Positions 16,646 to 27,001 of a stretch of DNA of 64,000 nucleotides are shown here, one piece after another. The notes beneath the pieces are model-generated. The model worked only from the letters and a program-made list of their open reading frames with translations, was not told where the DNA came from and did no database searches. Both the position numbers and the translations under genes were made by a program. The DNA comes from a virus (Duplodnaviria; Caudoviricetes). The DNA lies in IMG/VR virus record IMGVR_UViG_2974799246_000001, positions 1 to 64,000 of that record. The stretch is one strand, 5' to 3'. How positions within the stretch are numbered: the first letter of the stretch is position 1; each line of letters opens with the position of its first letter.

Positions 16646-17088
16646 CGATACGCAAATGACCGTGCCGCTGTTTGGCTTTGATCGAGCAATGCGTGGTCTA
16701 CAGGTCTACACACCAGATGCACCAAAGCACGATAAGAATCCGAAAGCGTGTCGCTACTTCACGCGAGCGTTCGGTGGCAAGCAGTTGGTGTGGGGATCGG
16801 AAATTAAACCTGAACGGGTCGACCGTCTTCTTAACTGAGTCTGTCTTCAAGGCATGTGCGCTACATCGTCTTGGACTCAATGCTTGGTCCGTTCTCGGGT
16901 CTAATGTGAGTGAGCATCTGTATCACCAGCTTCGACTTCTTGGTCTACGTTTCGTCTGTCTTGGTGATAACGATAAAGCAGGACTGGAGTTTAGTCAGAC
17001 GTTCGGACTAGGCGCTGTCAGTGCGGACCTCGATGAGATGACCGATGAGCAGTTGCTTGATTTAACTTTACCCTTCGTAAGGAAATAG
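16575..17088 (+). pseudogene. Toprim/primase-like protein interrupted by a +1 frameshift near 16803
   Basis: Frame A (ATG 16575, AAGGAG RBS) MNTTLRHHL..VPLFGFD..GLQVY..RYFT..VWGSEI; frame B continues NLNGSTVFLTESVFKA..SVLG..GDNDKAG (Toprim E and DxD). Confidence 0.72.
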
Positions 17089-17090
17089 AA

Positions 17091-17519
17091 ATGTCACGCG
17101 AAGTTATCGTCCGTATCTTAGGCCCTGTTGGTGTTGGCAAGTCTGCTGTGTACGCAACTCTGGTCAAAGCGCTGACTCAAATCGGTGTTGACGTCAAACA
17201 TGCCGATGAGAAAGCGTGGAAGTCTCTGGAGAACGCAGGCGAAGTTGAGCTGTCTACCGAAACGCTGAACGAACTCACACCTGTTGTGACGTTTGAAGAA
17301 GCTGGTATTCGCACTGATGCGTCCGCAAGCCAGAACTCTATCATACAGTTCTTTGCTTATGCGCATCTTCCGCCGCACCTGCAAGCTGTGAGCAAACCGT
17401 TCGCTCTGTTGGCCCAAGAGATGGACCAGAACCTTCCACAAGGTCCTGAGAAGTCTGCTGGTCTGCGCAAGCTGCTTGAAGCGAAAGACTGCATGGTTCG
17501 CCAGCTCGTTTCCAAATGA
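17091..17519 (+). CDS. P-loop-like N-terminal module fused to a helical-hairpin domain (Acb2/Tad1-hairpin-like)
   Basis: GPVGVGKS; C-terminal FFAYAHLPPHLQAVSKPF...PEKSAGLRKLLEAKDCMVR. Confidence 0.5.
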   Translation: MSREVIVRILGPVGVGKSAVYATLVKALTQIGVDVKHADEKAWKSLENAGEVELSTETLNELTPVVTFEEAGIRTDASASQNSIIQFFAYAHLPPHLQAVSKPFALLAQEMDQNLPQGPEKSAGLRKLLEAKDCMVRQLVSK

Positions 17520-17839
17520 GTCTCGATCTCTTAGTGCCGCCTATCGGTCTGGAGCGCATTGAGTATCGTAACTACAACTACGACAATGTTAGCCTCAACA
17601 TTTTGAACATCATTAGCGTGGTGCCGAGCGCATTCAAGTCATATCCTGATAATGAAGGCACTCCGTCTATTGCATTCGAAATGCGCGGGCGAGAGAAGCC
17701 TGTCCACTGGATTATCCCTAAAGGGAAGTACGGTGCGAACGCTACGGCGTTGCGGGACAGACTGCTCCATCGTTTGCAGACAGGTGGCTATTCACATTTG
17801 GTGACTGCTGACGAACTGATCGCTGACTTACAGAAATAA
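17516..17839 (+). CDS. Hypothetical protein
   Basis: ATGA overlap with the upstream gene. Confidence 0.65.
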   Translation: MSLDLLVPPIGLERIEYRNYNYDNVSLNILNIISVVPSAFKSYPDNEGTPSIAFEMRGREKPVHWIIPKGKYGANATALRDRLLHRLQTGGYSHLVTADELIADLQK

Positions 17840-17842
17840 CCC

Positions 17843-17870
17843 AAGGGTGGCCATTAGGCTGCCCTTTTCT
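17843..17870 (+). terminator. Intrinsic terminator
   Basis: AAGGGTGGCC-ATTA-GGCTGCCCTT followed by TTCT. Confidence 0.75.
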
Positions 17871-17993
17871 GATCTTAGACAACTAAAACAAGCCCATAAG
17901 GACTGAATAGAACCGTGCGTAAAGCGTATAAAACCATGTGTAGGCAGCGTAGAAACACCACCTTTTTCTTGAGCAGTGGGAAGCGCTTAAAAA

Positions 17994-18007
17994 CTGTAAA
18001 TACTGAT
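17994..18007 (+). promoter_or_regulatory. CTGTAAATACTGAT putative phage promoter element
   Basis: Identical 14-mer at 42866; CTGTAAA core recurs about 13 times on the + strand, often near gene ends. Confidence 0.55.
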
Positions 18008-18020
18008 AAAGGAGAGAAAA

Positions 18021-18863
18021 ATGACAGTAATCAGCCCAATCCGATATCAGGGCAATAAGCGAAGCCTTATCCCGATTATTCTTGAGCACACGCCTTCTGT
18101 GCAGGACTGCCCTCGCATGGTGGACGTGTTTGGTGGTAGCGCTACTGTTTGTGCGAACATGCCGCAGAAGTTTCGCGTTTATAACGAACTGAGTCCTCAG
18201 GTGTACGATATCGTTAAGATGTTAGTCGAACAGGACCCGAAGAAAACTCTTGGTCAGGTCAAGCGACTGGTCAAACATTGGTGCCTGACTAACAGCAACG
18301 AAGCGAACTACGATGCGTTTCGTACCGTCGTCCAGAAGAAGCGCACTGCTATCTTGCATTATGTTGCACATCGCCACGCTCATTCGAACATGCTGCGATT
18401 CAACCAGCAAGGTGTGTACAATGTAGGCTTTGGTGATCGTGGTCTGATTGGTAAGTTCGATGAACTGGAACACGAACTCACTACATTCCACAAACATATG
18501 CAGGGCGTTCACCTGACGAACATGAAGTACGGCAAGCTGCTTGGTCGCTTAGGCCACCAGCTAGACTGCAACACGTTCTGCTACTTCGACCCTCCGTACC
18601 TGGCGAGTGGTGCGATGCAGTACGGTAAGTGGACAGAGCAGAATGAACGCAACCTGCTTACGACTCTGGAGCAGTTGAATCGTCGCGGTGTTCCCTGGAT
18701 GTTGAGCAACGTTATCGAGCACAGAGAGTTCTCAAACGATCTGCTAAAGCGTTGGTTAAAGAAACATGCGACAACCGTGCTCTATCCAAACAAAAGCTAT
18801 GCGATGAACAATGGCCAGAGCGGCTCGCATAGCACGATTGAAATTCTGGCAATGAACTATTGA
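18021..18863 (+). CDS. dam: DNA adenine methyltransferase (Dam/D12 class)
   Basis: SPIRYQGNK, DVFGGSA, RFNQQGVYNVGFG, YFDPPY, WMLSN. Confidence 0.9.
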   Translation: MTVISPIRYQGNKRSLIPIILEHTPSVQDCPRMVDVFGGSATVCANMPQKFRVYNELSPQVYDIVKMLVEQDPKKTLGQVKRLVKHWCLTNSNEANYDAFRTVVQKKRTAILHYVAHRHAHSNMLRFNQQGVYNVGFGDRGLIGKFDELEHELTTFHKHMQGVHLTNMKYGKLLGRLGHQLDCNTFCYFDPPYLASGAMQYGKWTEQNERNLLTTLEQLNRRGVPWMLSNVIEHREFSNDLLKRWLKKHATTVLYPNKSYAMNNGQSGSHSTIEILAMNY

Positions 18864-18870
18864 GGCTGCT

Positions 18871-19176
18871 ATGACTCTGCGTACAAACCAAAAACTTATC
18901 TTCATCTTAAAGGCTCTAACGCGCAAGTTAGAGGAGGTCAACGCTCTCGCCTGGTCAATATCGAAAGATCCCAAAGACACTTGCGGAGCTATTGATATGT
19001 CGGCTATATCTGACTACTCAGATGAAGGTCTGATCAAAGAAATTGAAATGCGCGCCAATCAAATCGAAGAACGTAAGCGATACATTGCGAGTCTTCATGG
19101 TGGCGCTGATGGCCACTGCCGTGCTGCGAATAATCAAGCCGATGCAATCTATCAACGTTATTGTGGGAAAAGATAA
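18871..19176 (+). CDS. Hypothetical protein
   Basis: ORF with GAGG RBS. Confidence 0.6.
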   Translation: MTLRTNQKLIFILKALTRKLEEVNALAWSISKDPKDTCGAIDMSAISDYSDEGLIKEIEMRANQIEERKRYIASLHGGADGHCRAANNQADAIYQRYCGKR

Positions 19177-19880
19177 TGGAACAAGAAATGAAAGACATGC
19201 CGCTGCATATCATCAACGGCTTCCAGCTTAACGAGCACACGGCGAAACTGTTTGCTTATGCGCTTGACCTTGTTCGTCTTGGTGCCAACATTGACGAGTC
19301 GTTTTGGATCGACCGCATCGTGGCCGATGACTACAAAGCAGAAATAACCGATCTGCTGTCTATTACAGGTCCGCGCATTTCTCGTCGTCACTTTGACCTG
19401 TTCGAAACTCTGGAGACGTGTCGCCGTAACGCTCACATCATTCTTGAAGCACTGATTGACGGCATGAGCACCATCTGCACCGAACTGGAAGATGCGTTCA
19501 TGGCAGAAGATGGCGGTACGCCACTGATTCGTCGTGCCAAACAGAACATGTTCCGTAACGAAACGATTCAGTACCTGTTGCGTCCTGCCGAAGAAAAGGA
19601 CATTCATAACTGTCCTACGTACCGTAAGATTGCTGCTGGTCTGTATGATGCAGAACCTGTGCTGTTAGCGATTCGCGGCAATTCGTCAGAAACCAAATAC
19701 GTGTGGAACGGTGAATGGCGAGCGCTGCTTGCCGTGTCCGAAGCCGACCGTCAGGTACACTATCGTCGTTGGTATTACAATCACGCGCTCACTATTCATC
19801 GTCTGCGTGATATGATCACCTGCCACCTGTACACTGTGTACGCTGACCATTTCAGTCGAGGTAAAAATGCCGGGCATTAA
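19176..19880 (+). CDS. Hypothetical protein
   Basis: ATG 19176 coupled to the upstream TAA. Confidence 0.65.
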   Translation: MEQEMKDMPLHIINGFQLNEHTAKLFAYALDLVRLGANIDESFWIDRIVADDYKAEITDLLSITGPRISRRHFDLFETLETCRRNAHIILEALIDGMSTICTELEDAFMAEDGGTPLIRRAKQNMFRNETIQYLLRPAEEKDIHNCPTYRKIAAGLYDAEPVLLAIRGNSSETKYVWNGEWRALLAVSEADRQVHYRRWYYNHALTIHRLRDMITCHLYTVYADHFSRGKNAGH

Positions 19881-20343
19881 TGAACTGCGTAGTCGTCTTG
19901 CGGCTGCGCTCGATCTGGAAGTGAAGACCGCAGCAACGGCTGATATCGAATACTACGTTGACTCGGATGGTCTGCCTATGGGCTTGGTGCAGGAGTGGCG
20001 TCCTGATGCTCCTGAGAAAATCATCCAGGTCATCGAACAGTATGGTCTGCGCGTTGAGCGTGTTGTCAAGCCGGGTCTACCTAAGCCTGTCGATGCAGAT
20101 AATGTTCAGTGGGTGTTCAATGTCTGGTCGCGTCATCCTGTGTATCGTACTCTGTCCTCTGATGAATTTATACATCAGGGTGGTCCTCGCATTGAGGGTG
20201 AGACTTTGACAATGGCAGTATTGACATGGGCAGTTCTTCGAGCAGAGCGCATTAAACGGCTGAAAGCTGATCACACTATGTCTAAGGCATATAACTTCAA
20301 TGTATTGCGGGAGCGTGTGTATGTATCTGCCGTTGGGGGATAA
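19867..20343 (+). CDS. Hypothetical protein, weak DUF2591/NinX-like resemblance
   Basis: W.P...IIQVIEQYGL and GETLTMAV motifs. Confidence 0.45.
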   Translation: MPGINELRSRLAAALDLEVKTAATADIEYYVDSDGLPMGLVQEWRPDAPEKIIQVIEQYGLRVERVVKPGLPKPVDADNVQWVFNVWSRHPVYRTLSSDEFIHQGGPRIEGETLTMAVLTWAVLRAERIKRLKADHTMSKAYNFNVLRERVYVSAVGG

Positions 20344-20731
20344 CGCCAGTGATGCAGAAGCGCGGGCGTACTATCAGAAACAACATGAACGCGCCGAAGC
20401 CACCATGCGAGAAATCTGGGCGTTACGTGGCTGGACGATTCGTTGGGAGTGGCACAACGGCATCTGCGATGATTGTGAGTTCCTGTTCGACGAAACAGGC
20501 AAGCAGTTGTGTCCGTACCACGATGCCATTCCGCAAGAAAGTCAGGTGGCGTACAATCTTGAGAAGCATCGCCTCAATGTGACGTACACCAAGAAATCTG
20601 TAAAATTGATTAACAAGCAAGACCCAAATCCAGTTGAAGGTAAAGCTGACACGTTACGCCAGGCTTATATCAATTGGCTGTTGGCCCTTGAGAAACAAAA
20701 AGCTGAGGAACAAAAGTGCGCCACGACTTAA
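20321..20731 (+). CDS. Hypothetical protein
   Basis: ORF in operon; start uncertain (20300 or 20321). Confidence 0.55.
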   Translation: MYLPLGDNASDAEARAYYQKQHERAEATMREIWALRGWTIRWEWHNGICDDCEFLFDETGKQLCPYHDAIPQESQVAYNLEKHRLNVTYTKKSVKLINKQDPNPVEGKADTLRQAYINWLLALEKQKAEEQKCATT

Positions 20732-21237
20732 CCGAACTCCCTATTTCCGTAGAGCAAGCAGAGCACATCATGGCCAGTGTGTTTACTCTGGCTGGTGCTT
20801 CTAAATCGAAGCGTCGTGCGACTGCTGCAATGCTCATTCACTTCCACGACGGCTTCCCTACGATTATCAGTAGCGGTGTCAACGGTACTATGCCTGGCGA
20901 AAGCAACGTCATGGAAACTCCTGACTTGACGCTCTCACTTAACACTGTTATCCATGCAGAGGTGAACTGCCTCAATCGCATGGAAGAATACAGTCTGTGG
21001 GCAAACGAACAGGACATTCTGTTCTGTACCGATTCGCCGTGTCCGAACTGTCTGGCTGATCTCGAAGCCGAAGGCGTGAAGACCGTTGTGTATGCGCGTG
21101 AGTATCGACTAACTGATCATCTGGACGCATCTTCGATTAAGATGTTCTGTCTGGATATGAAGTCCGTTGAGCACCGTATGCTTCGCGGTATCGAGCGCAT
21201 GAACGAAGTTATCGCAACAACACCAGCGTCTGAATAA
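20716..21237 (+). CDS. dCMP deaminase-like protein
   Basis: SSGVNGT, HAEVNC and SPCPNC zinc-deaminase motifs, VVYAREY. Confidence 0.88.
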   Translation: MRHDLTELPISVEQAEHIMASVFTLAGASKSKRRATAAMLIHFHDGFPTIISSGVNGTMPGESNVMETPDLTLSLNTVIHAEVNCLNRMEEYSLWANEQDILFCTDSPCPNCLADLEAEGVKTVVYAREYRLTDHLDASSIKMFCLDMKSVEHRMLRGIERMNEVIATTPASE

Positions 21238-21258
21238 GACCAATAAGAGGTACTAACC

Positions 21259-21942
21259 GTGCAAGAGAAAATCTACCATCATGGCCTGAACAACAAAGTG
21301 TTGACCAGAGCCGAGCAGGATGAAATGTTTCGTGAACTAAATCGTATGCAGCAAGATCGTATGCGTCACTTCGCGGAATTGCTTGAAAGCGAACCACGGT
21401 TAGTGTCTCAATACTCGGGCCATAACATGTTTGACCTGTCTAAGCTGGAAGAACGTGTGCATCTACCGCTGCATACGCTGTTCACCGAAAGAGGCCGTGA
21501 CCCTATTGAGCAACTCTCGCCTACGTTCCGTCATGGTGGTACTGTTCGTGGTGTTGTGCATCGCTATCCGCGGGCGTCAGACAATCTGCCAAAAGGTGAT
21601 ATCCGCATTGACGCTTCGCAGATGAAACGTTGTAGCGATAACGTGCGCCTCGATCTCAATAGCGATGACTTGTATCGTGCAATGGTGATGGGTCTGACTG
21701 GCGATCCTGTCGGAGCTAACCTCGTTACGATTGACAGCGTGGTATCTGATGATATCATCGCTGAGTTCAAAACAACGGGTGACCCAAGAGGTCCACAGGC
21801 TACTGGTCGAGCGCTGCGTGTTAAGCGTGACTCTGATTGGTCTGCTGAACGCCGTGACCGTGCTGCGACTTCTGCGCCTGTTCGCAAGAAGCTCCGTTCT
21901 AAAACACGCGCACAAAAGAAAGCGCGCCGTAAACAACGTTAA
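21259..21942 (+). CDS. Hypothetical protein with basic C-tail
   Basis: GTG start, GAGG RBS. Confidence 0.65.
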   Translation: MQEKIYHHGLNNKVLTRAEQDEMFRELNRMQQDRMRHFAELLESEPRLVSQYSGHNMFDLSKLEERVHLPLHTLFTERGRDPIEQLSPTFRHGGTVRGVVHRYPRASDNLPKGDIRIDASQMKRCSDNVRLDLNSDDLYRAMVMGLTGDPVGANLVTIDSVVSDDIIAEFKTTGDPRGPQATGRALRVKRDSDWSAERRDRAATSAPVRKKLRSKTRAQKKARRKQR

Positions 21943-21951
21943 GGAACTACT

Positions 21952-22434
21952 GTGGAACCTTTCCTGAAAGATATCAAAGACCGTTTCGCTTCTGCATTGG
22001 GAATCGACCCTAAAGTTCTCGATGCTCCTGTGGACGAAGAATCCGCTGAACGTTTTGGTGCGTTCCTGCGTGAGGACCAGCGCAAAATCAAAGTAGGTCT
22101 TGCGCTCTGCCATCTTCAAATCCCAGATGATGTTCGCTATGATCTGCTGCATAATCATCTGGACACTACTGACCGCGTACTACGTGAAACGTTCGACGGT
22201 CTCGCTGCCCGACTCGTTGCTGTTAACAGCGCAGGTGGTGGCGATGAAAAACAAGCGGCGTCTGGTGCGTTTCGTCTAGCTATGCTGATGAACATTCTGG
22301 GCTTCGATGACCAAACACTGAAAGGTGTGTTAACCGACCCAAGCCTCTCTCGTCAGGCTGGTCTTATTGCAATGACTGGCCTGAACGATATGGGTCAGAA
22401 AATCCAATCGCTTTACGACGAGAAAACAAAATGA
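21952..22434 (+). CDS. Hypothetical protein
   Basis: GTG start, AAGGA RBS. Confidence 0.65.
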   Translation: MEPFLKDIKDRFASALGIDPKVLDAPVDEESAERFGAFLREDQRKIKVGLALCHLQIPDDVRYDLLHNHLDTTDRVLRETFDGLAARLVAVNSAGGGDEKQAASGAFRLAMLMNILGFDDQTLKGVLTDPSLSRQAGLIAMTGLNDMGQKIQSLYDEKTK

Positions 22435-22595
22435 GCAACCCGACTAATCCATTGGCAGATTACTTCAACGCTGACGCAGTTATCCCAGGTGTAGACGACG
22501 CAGAAGATCGTGTCGAAGCTATGCGTGACGGTGGCGGCGAAGTTGTTGACGATAAAGATGCTGATGGCTGTGAAAGCGGCGCCTGCAAAATCTAA
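22431..22595 (+). CDS. 54-aa acidic peptide ending in an NrdA-type redox tail (DGCESGACKI)
   Basis: Translated by hand: MSNPTNPLADYFNADAVIPGVDDAEDRVEAMRDGGGEVVDDKDADGCESGACKI*; ATGA overlap upstream, terminator right after. Confidence 0.8.
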   Translation: MSNPTNPLADYFNADAVIPGVDDAEDRVEAMRDGGGEVVDDKDADGCESGACKI

Positions 22596-22598
22596 CTC

Positions 22599-22626
22599 AT
22601 GGGGCCTAGTGCCCCATTTCTGTTTT
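22599..22626 (+). terminator. Intrinsic terminator
   Basis: ATGGGGC-CTAGT-GCCCCAT-TTCTGTTTT. Confidence 0.7.
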
Positions 22627-22636
22627 GGGGAATTTT

Positions 22637-23176
22637 ATGCAAACAGCATACCGTTGTAAGCATTGCAAGTATGTCCACAATGACAAGGTAAGTAGCTGCG
22701 ATTGTCAGGGCAGTAAAAAGTTTGAGTACACGTTGGTGCAAATCATCGACGTGCCTGAGAACGAAGACGGTGTACCTCCGTTCAAAGATCTCAAACACTC
22801 TCGCGCACCGCGTTACGTCAACGTAAAGAACGGTACGTATGGCAATGGCATCTATGAGTTGCGTGAGGTGCGGAGTAATGTTGATGGTGATGAGCGCTAT
22901 TGGTGGACTAACATCGGTAACATGCAGAGTGGTCTGGATCGCTCTGACCTGGGCATGAAGATAGTTGAGGCTAACATGCGAGCTAACTGTGTGCTGGCTG
23001 CTGCCGGTCCTGTCATGCTCGAAGCGCTCTACATGGCCTATCAGTATTTCCATCGTAAGCGTCTGGTACAAGGCGATACTCCACAGACTGCTATGCGCAT
23101 CTCAATAATCGCCGAAGCAATTCGTCAAGGTACTGACCTGTCTGTCTTCAAAGAACCGCAAATACCAAAGGAGTGA
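22637..23176 (+). CDS. Hypothetical protein with N-terminal Cys cluster
   Basis: YRCKHC..CDC; ATG 22637. Confidence 0.65.
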   Translation: MQTAYRCKHCKYVHNDKVSSCDCQGSKKFEYTLVQIIDVPENEDGVPPFKDLKHSRAPRYVNVKNGTYGNGIYELREVRSNVDGDERYWWTNIGNMQSGLDRSDLGMKIVEANMRANCVLAAAGPVMLEALYMAYQYFHRKRLVQGDTPQTAMRISIIAEAIRQGTDLSVFKEPQIPKE

Positions 23177-23179
23177 TTG

Positions 23180-23779
23180 ATGTACTATCAGCAACTGAAA
23201 AATAAACTGGCTGCATATGGTCTGGCTATTCACAACAAGCGCCAGGAAAATCGTAAGCGCCTAGCTGCCCTTCGTGTAATGCAGGACGATGTGATTCATG
23301 GCGGTCAGGTGTGGACGTCGAAAGAAAACGGCGTAAACTACCAGATACTGTTTCTGACCAACCTGTATTCTGACGGTTCGATTCAGGTTATTTTCTCCAA
23401 GCACTGGGCGTACATCTCCTCAATGCCTGTCGAAGACTTCCTCGAACAGTTCACGCATAACGGTGAGATTGATAACTCGCTACCGCCTGCGTCTGACGAC
23501 CTCATGGCTATGGCCACCAACATGTTTGGGCGCAGCACTATACGCAAGCCACAAGAGGGTGAGTATTGGTCGCGTGTTGATCGTATGCCTAGCGGTTTCG
23601 ATGACGACCGTAAGCCTGTGTTCCGTGATCATAAAGTCACTATTCAGGTTCGTGGTATCGTTCACCAATCTCCGTCTCAGCCGTTTGTGCTGTACAAAGA
23701 GAACGGCGAAGATCTTGTACTGAACATGCACCAATTCTTAAATCGCTACAGTCCGGAGCCCGAAGAAAATGTTGATTGA
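23180..23779 (+). CDS. Protein with tandem DUF1653-like repeats
   Basis: GQVWTSKENGVNYQILFLTN..FLEQFT; GEYW..VLY..FLNRY. Confidence 0.55.
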   Translation: MYYQQLKNKLAAYGLAIHNKRQENRKRLAALRVMQDDVIHGGQVWTSKENGVNYQILFLTNLYSDGSIQVIFSKHWAYISSMPVEDFLEQFTHNGEIDNSLPPASDDLMAMATNMFGRSTIRKPQEGEYWSRVDRMPSGFDDDRKPVFRDHKVTIQVRGIVHQSPSQPFVLYKENGEDLVLNMHQFLNRYSPEPEENVD

Positions 23780-24416
23780 CTTCCTGAAAGCAGTGCCTGC
23801 AATAATCCTCTGCTACATCATTTGGCGCTATGTCACGAACAAAGTCGAGCGCGACCGTCATCTGCGTAAAGCGCAAGAGCATTACAATCACGGGCGTCTT
23901 GATAGCGGTAACGTCTGGATTCATTTGAAGACGGGCCGTCCATATACGGTATTGTGTTTGACTAACACGGGCGTGAATAAATCTAACTGGCGGAATGCTT
24001 GGGAGATCAACGTCGTATATACCAACGACTTCGAACAAGTCTGGAACAGGCCTTTCAGTGAGTTCTGCCATAAGTTCACGCACGTCAGCCGTGGTCCGAA
24101 TGAGGAGCACTTCACAACTACTCTGATGGGTATGCAGATGGAAGCCAACACTCGCATTCTTATTCCGCATGAAGGCGAGATGTGGTTTGAAGGCACAGTC
24201 CATGCAACACCGCCGGAGTTGGTTGCTCAAGGCCATGCGCCTCAAGTTGTGTCCCAGCGCCGCGCTCATATAGACATGGTACTTGGTGTAGGACAAGCGC
24301 ATCCTGTCGTTGTGTATACTGTAAACGATAAGCAGACAGCAATGCTGCTTTCGCAGTTCATCTTCATCTACCGCAAAGAGGCTTCTTTCGATGGGACAGT
24401 CAGCTCTAGTGTTTAA
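23769..24416 (+). CDS. Membrane-anchored protein with tandem DUF1653-like repeats
   Basis: N-terminal TM; GNVWIHLKTGRPYTVLCLTN..VVY..WNRPFSEFCHKF; GEMW..VVY..QFIFIY. Confidence 0.6.
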   Translation: MLIDFLKAVPAIILCYIIWRYVTNKVERDRHLRKAQEHYNHGRLDSGNVWIHLKTGRPYTVLCLTNTGVNKSNWRNAWEINVVYTNDFEQVWNRPFSEFCHKFTHVSRGPNEEHFTTTLMGMQMEANTRILIPHEGEMWFEGTVHATPPELVAQGHAPQVVSQRRAHIDMVLGVGQAHPVVVYTVNDKQTAMLLSQFIFIYRKEASFDGTVSSSV

Positions 24417-24735
24417 GTACGTTATGTTCGTTCGCACTCGCACCAAAGAGCGCGACGACGGTGTTCACATGCCAGTCATCTTTCCAACTCATATCATGCA
24501 CTCAGATATGGGCGAAGCTATGATTGGCTACGCGATTCAGAACGGCATGATCGAAAACAAATACTATCAGCGTATGACTGCGGTTAGTGCTGGCTTCATC
24601 GATCTGAATGACCTGCGTTGTTTCGGCGAGTCTGAATCTCTGGAACTCAAGTCCCGTGAGCAGGACAGCGAGATCATCCGTGAGTACATGAAGACTCAAG
24701 GCAAAGGCGCTCCTGTTCCTGAGGTGGAAGAATGA
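24391..24735 (+). CDS. Conserved hypothetical phage protein
   Basis: PVIFP..IMHSD, VSAGFI..CFGESESLELKSR..D. Confidence 0.65.
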   Translation: MGQSALVFKYVMFVRTRTKERDDGVHMPVIFPTHIMHSDMGEAMIGYAIQNGMIENKYYQRMTAVSAGFIDLNDLRCFGESESLELKSREQDSEIIREYMKTQGKGAPVPEVEE

Positions 24736-25220
24736 GCATAGCAGGAAAAGTCGATAGCGTTAAAAACCAACGCGAGTCTGAACGTAAGGCCAAAGAAGAA
24801 ACTTTCCGTGCGGCCTGTCAGGCGCTCATTCCCAAAATCGCATCTGATATGGACGGCTTGCTTCTGCATTTCGTTAGCGCGAACGTTAATAGTGATCGCA
24901 TTGTACTAGGGACTCCTAAGTACACTATCTGCGACTACAGGTTTAAGCTGACCATCACAGTTGACTTCCATGAAAACCGTGACACGCAGTTCACTGTCGA
25001 GCTGGCTCCTGATGGTCCGTTCACGCTGATCAAAGATCGTGTGCGCCAGCGTCCGTGGTTCCTGCGTGACATTACGTTCATGCCGTACGAAGATGCTCTC
25101 TCCGAAATGATGTATCACGCTGTGGAGAGATCATTTGCAGGCAATGAGTGGCGTGACCGTTACGGTCCTAATCTCGGCTCAAGCGATGTAATATTCTCGC
25201 ACCTGTATCTGAGGTCCTGA
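24732..25220 (+). CDS. Hypothetical protein
   Basis: ATGA overlap. Confidence 0.65.
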   Translation: MSIAGKVDSVKNQRESERKAKEETFRAACQALIPKIASDMDGLLLHFVSANVNSDRIVLGTPKYTICDYRFKLTITVDFHENRDTQFTVELAPDGPFTLIKDRVRQRPWFLRDITFMPYEDALSEMMYHAVERSFAGNEWRDRYGPNLGSSDVIFSHLYLRS

Positions 25221-25600
25221 TGAAAGAAGTTCTGTTAGCGATCTGGAACAGCCCATTCTGGGATAAACCTGTTAGCGCATTCGTTGTGCCTGCGTTTGTC
25301 ATTACCTGGTTTATATGGACAGAGTATCGTGAGCGCCGTGAATTGCGTTTGTCTCGTGAGGTGTTTGCAACGGGCTGGGCACCTGTGAAAGGGACAATGT
25401 ACCGTCACCGCTATCTGCCTTGGCGCACCTGTCGTTTGTGCTATACTGTAAATAGTCCTAACGACAAGTTCATCCCTTCTGTCTTCATCGAAATCATAGG
25501 CGGCTCATACAAAGAATTGACCGCTCATAGTTTCTGTACATCTTACAAAGAGATTGAAAATGCCAACTCCAGTGATTCTTCTCAAGCAGCAAACTCGTGA
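25220..25600 (+). CDS. Hypothetical membrane protein
   Basis: N-terminal hydrophobic helix; GTMYRHRY. Confidence 0.55.
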   Translation: MKEVLLAIWNSPFWDKPVSAFVVPAFVITWFIWTEYRERRELRLSREVFATGWAPVKGTMYRHRYLPWRTCRLCYTVNSPNDKFIPSVFIEIIGGSYKELTAHSFCTSYKEIENANSSDSSQAANS

Positions 25601-25904
25601 CCTGCTGGTAAAGATGTTCGGCCAGAACAAGCCATTCATCGTCGTGCGCCGTGACGCTATCGTGGAGAACGAAAAGCGTTTCGGTGATCGCGTTTACTTC
25701 TCTAATGGCGTTAACACCGTCACTGTGCCAAACATTCAAGGGCTTGACCTGGGTGATAAGCTCTACATTGCAGAAGACGGCGATGTGTATGAGTGGCATC
25801 CTCACTTCGAGCGTCCTTACGAAGCAGTATCGAACAACCAGACAGAAGCTCTGGCGTTTGGTCTGCATCCCATTGTCTTCCACACCGACACACGGAACAG
25901 CTAA
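25560..25904 (+). CDS. Hypothetical protein
   Basis: Stop coupled to the thyA start. Confidence 0.6.
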   Translation: MPTPVILLKQQTRDLLVKMFGQNKPFIVVRRDAIVENEKRFGDRVYFSNGVNTVTVPNIQGLDLGDKLYIAEDGDVYEWHPHFERPYEAVSNNQTEALAFGLHPIVFHTDTRNS

Positions 25905-27001
25905 TGTCACAACCACTTGATTTACGAAACCCGAACCACTACGAACTGTACTCTCTCCATAGCGTGGACGAGCAGTATATCAACCTGTGCGATGCAATCA
26001 TTGCTACTGGTACGCAAGAGTCCGATGCTGGTCGCACCGACGATACGTGGACGACTCTGATTGGCGTTGGTTTCCAGTTGCAGAACACGCACATTGCTTT
26101 CCCTGCACTGCTGTCCGCACGTAAGAACTGGAGCGCAGCCGTCGATGAGATGTGCTGGATGGCTCGCGGTGAAACGAACATCAACACTCTCGGCTCTAAG
26201 ATCTGGGACGAGTGGGCAGATGAAAGCGGTGAGTGCGGTCCAATCTACGGCGAGATGTGGCGTCGTTGGCCTGACATTAAAGCGTTCTTCGACTACACGC
26301 AGCCTATGGCGTCTTGCCCTACTGCCGATGTTATTCGTGTGCGTGACGAAATTCTGCGTATGCGTCAGGACGGCTACATCGAAACGCAACTGACTGACGG
26401 TCGCATCCTGTTTGAAGGTGAGATTGACCAGTTCGCTAACGCTCTGTATCACATCGAAAACCGTTCGCGTTCTCGCCGCATTCGTGTGCAGGGTTTCAAC
26501 CCAAGCTATGTGAACATGCAGGGTCTTCCTCCGTGTCACACTGAGTTTGAGTTCAACGTAACGAAGTCCACCAAGTACGAACAGGCGCAGGCCGATGCTC
26601 GCGGTCAGACGGTAGCGCAGGACAGTCTGCATATCACTGTCACCATGCGCAGCAACGACTGCCTGCTGGGGCGTCCTTTCAACATCATCGGCTACAGTGC
26701 AATGCACCAACTGATTGCGAAGTGGGCTGGCTTGAACGTTGGTGGCTTTACGCTGAATACGACGAACACCCACCTGTACGATCATCACCGTGAAGCATAC
26801 GCTAAACAGCGTGAGCAATGGATGACGTTGCGTGAACGTATGCAAACAACTGGCGAGCCTGTGAAATATCCTGTGCTCGAAATCTCCGATGATGTTATCG
26901 GTCTGACAGCTAAAGAACTGCTGGACAACGTTAACATCGACTGGTTCGAGCTGGTGGACTACAGCCCGATGCCAGCAGTAAAAGGACGTGTGACCAAATG
27001 A
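25904..27001 (+). CDS. thyA: Thymidylate synthase (ThyA type, with insertions)
   Basis: GRTDD, IWDEWA, GPIYGEMWR, SRRI, LPPCH, MRSND.LLG.PFNI (Asn = dUMP specificity), HLY. Confidence 0.92.
   Translation: MSQPLDLRNPNHYELYSLHSVDEQYINLCDAIIATGTQESDAGRTDDTWTTLIGVGFQLQNTHIAFPALLSARKNWSAAVDEMCWMARGETNINTLGSKIWDEWADESGECGPIYGEMWRRWPDIKAFFDYTQPMASCPTADVIRVRDEILRMRQDGYIETQLTDGRILFEGEIDQFANALYHIENRSRSRRIRVQGFNPSYVNMQGLPPCHTEFEFNVTKSTKYEQAQADARGQTVAQDSLHITVTMRSNDCLLGRPFNIIGYSAMHQLIAKWAGLNVGGFTLNTTNTHLYDHHREAYAKQREQWMTLRERMQTTGEPVKYPVLEISDDVIGLTAKELLDNVNIDWFELVDYSPMPAVKGRVTK

Follow-up and report, generated by a model that had tools for sequence, protein, structure and literature searches.

The 54-residue peptide encoded at positions 22,431 to 22,595 of the window (the whole stretch of 64,000 nucleotides analysed here) is, on sequence evidence, a member of a real, selected and widely distributed family of phage proteins in which the redox tail of the host ribonucleotide reductase (RNR) is copied, and by means of which the phage probably taps the host supply of DNA building blocks. 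As judged by alignment and structure prediction, it is a small, very acidic, mostly disordered protein, copying the dithiol 'swinging arm' of the class Ia RNR alpha subunit.

All DNA precursors pass through RNR, an enzyme that many large phages encode themselves. In the host NrdA, thioredoxin (Trx) or glutaredoxin (Grx) reduces the arm, which in turn re-reduces the active-site disulfide after each turnover. The C-terminal cysteine pair of RNR alpha has been described as reducing the active-site pair and being itself reduced by thioredoxins (PMC11903788; PMC4078304).

The peptide gene and its boundaries

The window is part of the complete 265-kb genome of an Erwinia jumbo phage of the genus Alexandravirus, and this stretch is 94.6% identical at the DNA level to pEa_SNUABM_28/16/18. 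The features of the window on which the argument rests are the following.

20716-21237 (+): dCMP deaminase (PF00383, E 2.9e-10)
21952-22434 (+): upstream ORF of 160 aa, ATGA-joined to the peptide gene
22431-22595 (+): acidic-peptide gene, 54 aa, stop included (ORF list and sequence)
22431-22529 (+): N-terminal acidic segment, residues 1-33 (family alignments A1 and A3, AF2)
22530-22541 (+): G34-G35-G36-E37 motif (alignment A3, 26 family members)
22563-22592 (+): C-terminal DGCESGACKI, equal to NrdA residues 752-761
22599-22627 (+): intrinsic-terminator-like hairpin (ATGGGGCC-TAG-TGCCCCAT) and T-run (sequence)
25793-27001 (+): thymidylate synthase homologue (PF00303, E 1.5e-56), given as the longest ORF, whose true start may lie further in

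A preliminary description of this DNA had reported an ATGA overlap at the start of the peptide gene and a terminator right after its stop, and both are present: the ATG and the TGA that ends the 160-aa ORF have bases in common, and a 7-bp GC-rich hairpin at 22599-22617 has a T-run beyond it. Its statement that the gene is unannotated does not hold for the GenBank relatives, in which the orthologue is annotated as 'hypothetical protein' (e.g. pEaSNUABM28_00035, Alexandra_34).

The translation of 22431-22595 ends ...MRDGGGEVVDDKDADGCESGACKI* and gives a product of 5.6 kDa with a computed net charge of about -10.5 and two cysteines in all. AF2 places a helix at residues 21-34 and disorder elsewhere, with no strands and a mean pLDDT of 57; over the C47-x4-C52-K-I stretch the mean pLDDT is about 47-50, without stable structure. 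No Pfam family is found in the peptide at E <= 0.01, and the earlier remark that no RNR catalytic domain is attached stands, neither the ten-stranded alpha/beta barrel (PF02867) nor any other Pfam match being present.

Against seven Alexandravirus orthologues the peptide ORF shows 3-11 synonymous and 0-3 non-synonymous differences, with dN/dS of 0.00-0.15; it is a real gene under purifying selection and no gene remnant. The opposite view, that it is what is left of a captured nrdA 3' end in decay, or an ORF arisen by chance, can draw on the fact that the peptide is very short, on a word-index protein search that gave two relatives only, and on the near-silence of the homologue in phage phiR1-37 (see below). 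It is already contradicted by the data and can be given next to no weight: besides the low dN/dS, the gene is sharply bounded by a coupled start on one side and a terminator on the other, there is no collinear NrdA-like sequence upstream, and the check for conservation in related phages showed the ORF intact in 18 genomes, which represent at least 13 lineages; it recurs, moreover, in 20 representative clusters. Decayed nrdA upstream, named at the outset as a finding that would speak for a remnant, was looked for in window positions 17000-26000 with E. coli NrdA and NrdB as tblastn queries; the tail is the only match (E 0.002), the remaining ones all have E > 1.5 and are not collinear, so that there is no other NrdA-like sequence within 9 kb.

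Likeness to the host NrdA tail

The exact copy of the NrdA tail reported in the preliminary description is borne out, the last 10 residues, DGCESGACKI, being those of the E. coli NrdA C-terminus (PDB SEQRES), of which residues 737-761 read GAEDAQDDLVPSIQDDGCESGACKI. Cys47 and Cys52 of the peptide correspond to Cys754 and Cys759 of NrdA, and C47-x4-C52-K-I-COOH is identical to NrdA 754-761. Among the NrdA tails extracted from 80 Enterobacterales genomes, 58 end in QDDGCESGACKI, those of Erwinia and Pantoea species among them, and all 80 end in C-[EA]-[SG]-G-A-C-K-I. That both proteins should end in the same ten residues is, from these comparisons, far beyond chance; tblastn of NrdA 735-761 against window positions 22524-22592 gives E 0.002.

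Beyond the last 8-11 residues, the likeness to E. coli-type tails is weak, as is a likeness running through 'RDG' (p about 0.03, RDG-bearing members only). The linker EVVE(A/S)(S/A)D, which is common in the family, resembles the NrdA tails of Photorhabdus and Providencia (…EEVVESADSDCE[SG]GACKI) and also the NrdA tail of a T4-like phage (…ELEVVEETDDGCESGACKI). Because this linker likeness beats shuffles (p <= 0.05 in 15-16 of 22 members), about 17 C-terminal residues probably descend from the 3' end of nrdA, the rest of the peptide being apparently unrelated to NrdA. The last 30 nt of the gene are identical to Erwiniaceae nrdA at 24-29 positions, with no match further upstream, a degree of identity that codon bias could explain.

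Host NrdA tails carry TRDGAED and no GGG-E; nor does NrdA have a counterpart of the N-terminal acidic segment. A likeness of the N-terminal half to the C-terminal tail of NrdB (SSYL...DDLSNFQL), attractive by eye in a few members, was set aside as unsupported: in the shuffle test the window peptide scored z = -0.9 and just 3 of 25 members reached p < 0.05, and the family profile failed to find NrdB among PDB sequences.

A small-protein family of jumbo phages

From the sequence searches, the window peptide is one member of a family of small proteins of jumbo phages that spans at least 13 lineages. By tblastn, homologues are retrieved in Alexandravirus and the SNUABM_25 group, as well as in Y3 and Yoloswag; further homologues are found in Dickeya phages JA11/13/29/33, Serratia phage PCH45, Klebsiella phages Miami, FBKp24 and KpLz-2_45, Yersinia phages phiR1-37 and fHe-Yen9-02, and Salmonella phages SPAsTU and SPLA10. 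The tblastn links from the window peptide itself reach the Miami, PCH45 and Y3 members, and a profile search of whole genomes added Ea35-70, SPN3US and phiEaH2. With a profile built from the window peptide and its close relatives, a search of 1.84 billion representative proteins retrieved the wider family at E 1e-9 to 6e-4, in the form of 20 clusters, none of which is NrdA; 13 are small (44-84 aa) and 7 longer (164-296 aa), with the module at the extreme C-terminus throughout.

Two features typical of the family are both present in the window peptide, namely C-x(2-4)-C-[KEMS]-[IL] at the very C-terminal end, and GGG-E, which stands 9-12 residues ahead of the first cysteine and after a short helix. 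Upstream of GGG-E, alignments A1 and A3 show an acidic/hydrophobic consensus, D-x-F-D-x-x-x-L-x-x-x-D-L-D, followed by the short helix R-V-E-x-M. Across the 26 members of alignment A3 both cysteines and G35 are invariant, and G34, G36, E37 and the final Ile are kept in at least 90%. In these alignments GGG-E and the N-terminal acidic segment are as conserved as the cysteines, yet without a counterpart in NrdA, which suggests that part of the function lies outside tail mimicry.

The spacing of the cysteines is less uniform: CX4C is usual, one cluster has CX3C, and Y3, Yoloswag, Ea35-70 and P0031 have CX2C. Phages of E. amylovora carry CESGAC, CEGGAC, CEGGGC, CDGC or CEGC. Since phages of the same host differ in their tails, exact identity with the host tail is a trait of the Alexandra subgroup and not of the family; likewise, relatives with CX2C on a host whose NrdA has CX4C indicate that exact identity is not required. 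The spacing varies but the pair is always kept, which is more in keeping with a redox pair than with a structural motif of rigid geometry. It is quite improbable that the task of the cysteines is a non-redox one, be it to bind metal on dimerisation or otherwise structural, with a likeness to NrdA that would be convergent or left over. For such a role one may cite that there are two cysteines only, in a very acidic and disordered peptide, and that the profile searches did not bring NrdA above threshold; the exact or close copy of the NrdA tail, which extends to the final K-I and to the alternation of S and G that host tails show, argues against it, and variable spacing is hard to reconcile with a fixed metal site.

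PHROGs splits the family into phrog_24014, phrog_10239, phrog_38753 and phrog_14561, all of 'unknown function', and the link to the NrdA tail is recorded in none of the four entries. Family members match PHROG profiles with best E-values of 1e-11 to 1e-16; the match of the window peptide to phrog_24014 is weak (E 0.038). The tail sequences had no match in the full text of 8.4 million papers, among which no paper describing the peptide was found, and a search of IMG/VR with the DNA pattern for DGGGEVVE gave known phages and noise, and nothing else.

The homologue in phiR1-37, g117 (L012:2959-3114), lacks GGG-E and stands alone between a predicted promoter and a terminator of its own. In RNA-seq it is almost untranscribed, with values of 3.9/1.5/1.2 as against 10^2 to 3x10^4 for the listed expressed genes around it (PMC4848604 supplement). 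Decay of the gene, or expression under particular conditions, may account for this.

In some phages the tail module ends longer proteins (146-296 aa), and at least two unrelated types of N-terminal domain precede it, one in P0014, P0017, P0020 and SPLA10_103, the other in P0022, P0025 and P0026. The fused forms are as follows.

L009:2710-3150: Yoloswag gp34
L016:2293-3141: SPLA10_103
Representative clusters: P0014, P0017, P0020, P0022, P0025, P0026

Neither Pfam nor the protein atlas gave any assignment for the fused N-terminal domains. A Rosetta-stone reading of the fusions was abandoned, these domains being homologous neither to each other nor to the upstream ORF or anything else in this genome.

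Fusion to unrelated domains means that the module could serve other proteins, and raises the idea of a portable tag for recruiting redoxins. The NrdA-like tail would then be a generic Trx/Grx substrate motif and host RNR not its target. Through the tag, carried as a cis fusion or contacted via the N-terminal acidic helix, a phage protein would receive electrons from host Trx/Grx or keep the redoxin bound, in the manner of T7 DNA polymerase with its recruited thioredoxin. The module does sit always at the C-terminus in the longer proteins, with two or more unrelated N-terminal types and Yoloswag gp34 besides; the ATGA overlap in the window joins the peptide gene to that of a conserved 160-aa protein; and GGG-E and the N-terminal motifs are unrelated to NrdA. 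The idea is nevertheless improbable, for the lack of homology among the fused domains, or with anything in this phage, points to no common client, and the complementary distribution of peptide and RNR described below would be left unexplained.

Gene neighbourhood

The dCMP deaminase and thyA that the preliminary description placed next to the peptide gene are indeed its neighbours (PF00383 and PF00303). At its longest, the ORF of the thymidylate synthase homologue starts at GTG and has 402 aa, about 37 of them an N-terminal extension, and the relatives annotate the enzyme as a 1098-nt gene for a 365-aa protein. Both genes lie near the peptide gene here and in Y3, Yoloswag and JA11, while in SPAsTU and SPN3US it is thyA and MazG that do so.

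The 160-aa protein encoded just upstream is kept only in the Alexandra/Y3 group. AF2 predicts it to be all-alpha, with nine helices (pLDDT 70); it has no Pfam or PHROG match and no fold match in the PDB, and in BFVD it finds its own orthologue only.

Two other ORFs of the region deserve mention in their own right. Downstream, a 183-aa ORF (22625-23176, +) has a Cys-rich start (YRCKHCKY...SSCDCQG) resembling a small zinc ribbon; its profile match is phrog_1273, of unknown function (E 7.7e-10), and in the Alexandra/Y3 group it is kept as a neighbour of the peptide gene. Further upstream, a 280-aa ORF (18021-18863, +), hypothetical in the relatives, carries the FDPPY motif typical of N6-adenine DNA methyltransferases.

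RNR, redoxins and hosts

The complete 265-kb genome encodes no RNR large subunit (PF02867), small subunit (PF00268) or NrdD (PF13597), nor a thioredoxin (PF00085) or glutaredoxin (PF00462). Since the phage encodes none of them, any Trx, Grx or RNR partner of the peptide must be the host's. A candidate for a hidden RNR outside the window, at genome positions 153470-153712, where tblastn matched NrdA residues 601-688 (E 0.039), runs antisense inside a 1503-aa ORF and was judged a chance match.

Whether related phages encode an nrdA of their own had been put forward as a check, and the outcome is that PF02867 is found in 0 of 18 peptide-bearing genomes; NrdD, Trx and Grx above curated cut-offs are absent from the 16 further peptide-bearing genomes tested. 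Conversely, five of seven jumbo phages lacking the peptide encode an RNR (phiKZ, 201phi2-1, RaK2, 121Q and GAP32), and the remaining two, the Pseudomonas phages EL and OBP, have neither RNR nor peptide. The contrast of 0/18 with 5/7 gives a Fisher p of 4e-4, uncorrected for shared ancestry, the 18 genomes spanning at least 13 genus-level lineages. For comparison, the RNR beta subunit is reported to be conserved in more than half of jumbo phages (review, PMC13282480).

The named hosts are all Enterobacterales except for one 'Stenotrophomonas' label. The phage that bears it, BUCTxx100 (L005), has the same gene order over 8 kb as Klebsiella phage Miami (L004), and their peptides are identical at 45 of 46 positions; the label looks doubtful, because a host in another order would be surprising for phages so similar.

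A different setting is that of the metagenomic member P0016 (46 aa; contigs L148 and L149, about 105 kb), which lies directly after a family-A DNA polymerase and within 7 kb of a class III RNR (NrdD with ATP cone, and NrdG), ThyX and RtcB; the phage is not jumbo-sized. Class III RNR does not use a thiol tail.

A proposed redox arm acting in trans

The most likely function of the peptide, at a little less than an even chance, is that of a trans-acting arm which would sustain or raise the turnover of host RNR through the thiol relay from Trx/Grx to NrdA. The preliminary description had already put forward a boost to host RNR in trans, a decoy for Trx/Grx or an inhibitor; its account of the sequence holds, and its reading is supported in part. 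A free acidic peptide with the terminal sequence of NrdA should be accepted by the same partners. Host Trx1 and Grx1 would reduce it as they do the NrdA tail, and its dithiol would then exchange with the active-site cysteines of NrdA in trans. The result would be an additional electron shuttle under phage control, able to sustain or raise host RNR output during the replication of a 265-kb genome that carries no RNR. GGG-E and the N-terminal acidic helix would probably supply docking or hinge functions, for which a covalently attached host tail has no need.

Among the genomes examined, those with the peptide all lack a phage RNR, which favours such an arm. In the same direction may point the recurrence of the gene beside dCMP deaminase, thyA or MazG, and the fact that the named hosts, all but one, belong to an order whose NrdA, by the tails extracted, ends in C-x4-C-K-I. 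On the other side, the tethered host tail enjoys a high local concentration, to which a free peptide may add little; seven representative clusters, together with Yoloswag and SPLA10, carry the module in fused form; the metagenomic member stands beside a class III RNR; and the scant transcription of phiR1-37 g117 speaks against redox-relay readings in general.

The complementary distribution would be explained equally well by an inhibitor harmful to a phage-encoded RNR. The peptide would then act as a decoy, competing for Trx/Grx, or would occupy the NrdA active site or form mixed disulfides there; host dNDP synthesis would be lowered, or the redoxins drained, and the phage would recycle the nucleotides of host DNA by means of dCMP deaminase and ThyA. 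The structural evidence, an exact tail in a conserved module, is the same as for the trans-acting arm; absence from RNR-encoding phages is to be expected of a peptide that poisons any class Ia RNR, the phage's included; and the peptide-bearing phages retain enzymes of salvage and interconversion. There is also a precedent in yeast, where small disordered proteins reportedly block the function of the R1 tail, as Zhang et al. are said to have found in 2007. An inhibitor is unlikely all the same, in that an RNR-less phage with a 265-kb genome has no obvious gain from less dNTP synthesis and strong purifying selection calls for a benefit, while dependence on the recycling of host DNA is an assumption of that explanation.

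Comparison with known systems

The closest likeness of the peptide is to the tail of class Ia RNR alpha itself (about residues 737-761 of E. coli NrdA), with which it shares the identical last 10 residues, an acidic disordered context, a dithiol two residues from the C-terminus and, in many family members, the EVVE..D linker. Unlike that tail, it stands alone, without catalytic barrel or ATP cone, and has the N-terminal acidic helix and GGG-E.

Yeast Sml1, and with it Spd1, Hug1 and Dif1, are small disordered regulators of RNR that work through the interplay of R1 tail and N-domain. By analogy, the phage peptide is likewise small, disordered and free-standing, and plausibly acts on the re-reduction half-cycle of RNR; there is no sequence relationship, and Sml1 has no redox cysteine pair and is a cellular, not a viral, regulator. 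Synthetic peptides of the R2 (beta) C-terminus are also free copies of a flexible RNR tail, but they are laboratory reagents, which copy the beta tail and block subunit association. The redoxins of phages, such as T4 NrdC thioredoxin and the NrdH-type glutaredoxins, would be comparable as a phage-supplied part of the electron-delivery chain of RNR; unlike the peptide, they are folded proteins of the Trx fold serving a phage RNR, and here there is neither a Trx/Grx fold nor a phage RNR. The Trx fold with its active-site CxxC is not what the model of the peptide shows, which has one helix and no strands.

Significance for RNR-less jumbo phages

The peptide bears on how jumbo phages without an RNR meet their demand for dNTPs, and a free-standing copy of the NrdA redox tail points to a direct handle on the re-reduction step of host RNR. 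Whether activator or inhibitor, it would offer a naturally occurring tool for probing the half of the RNR cycle that is least understood, and would form a new class of small phage effector acting through short-motif mimicry, possibly a lead for peptides that modulate RNR. It is possible, if less probable than its opposite by a clear measure, that a detached, virus-encoded arm works in trans on the host class Ia RNR, and that RNR-less jumbo phages could thereby drive or control host dNTP synthesis. If so, the peptide would be the first RNR tail to occur free in nature, and would represent a new viral way to take over the electron supply of a host enzyme.
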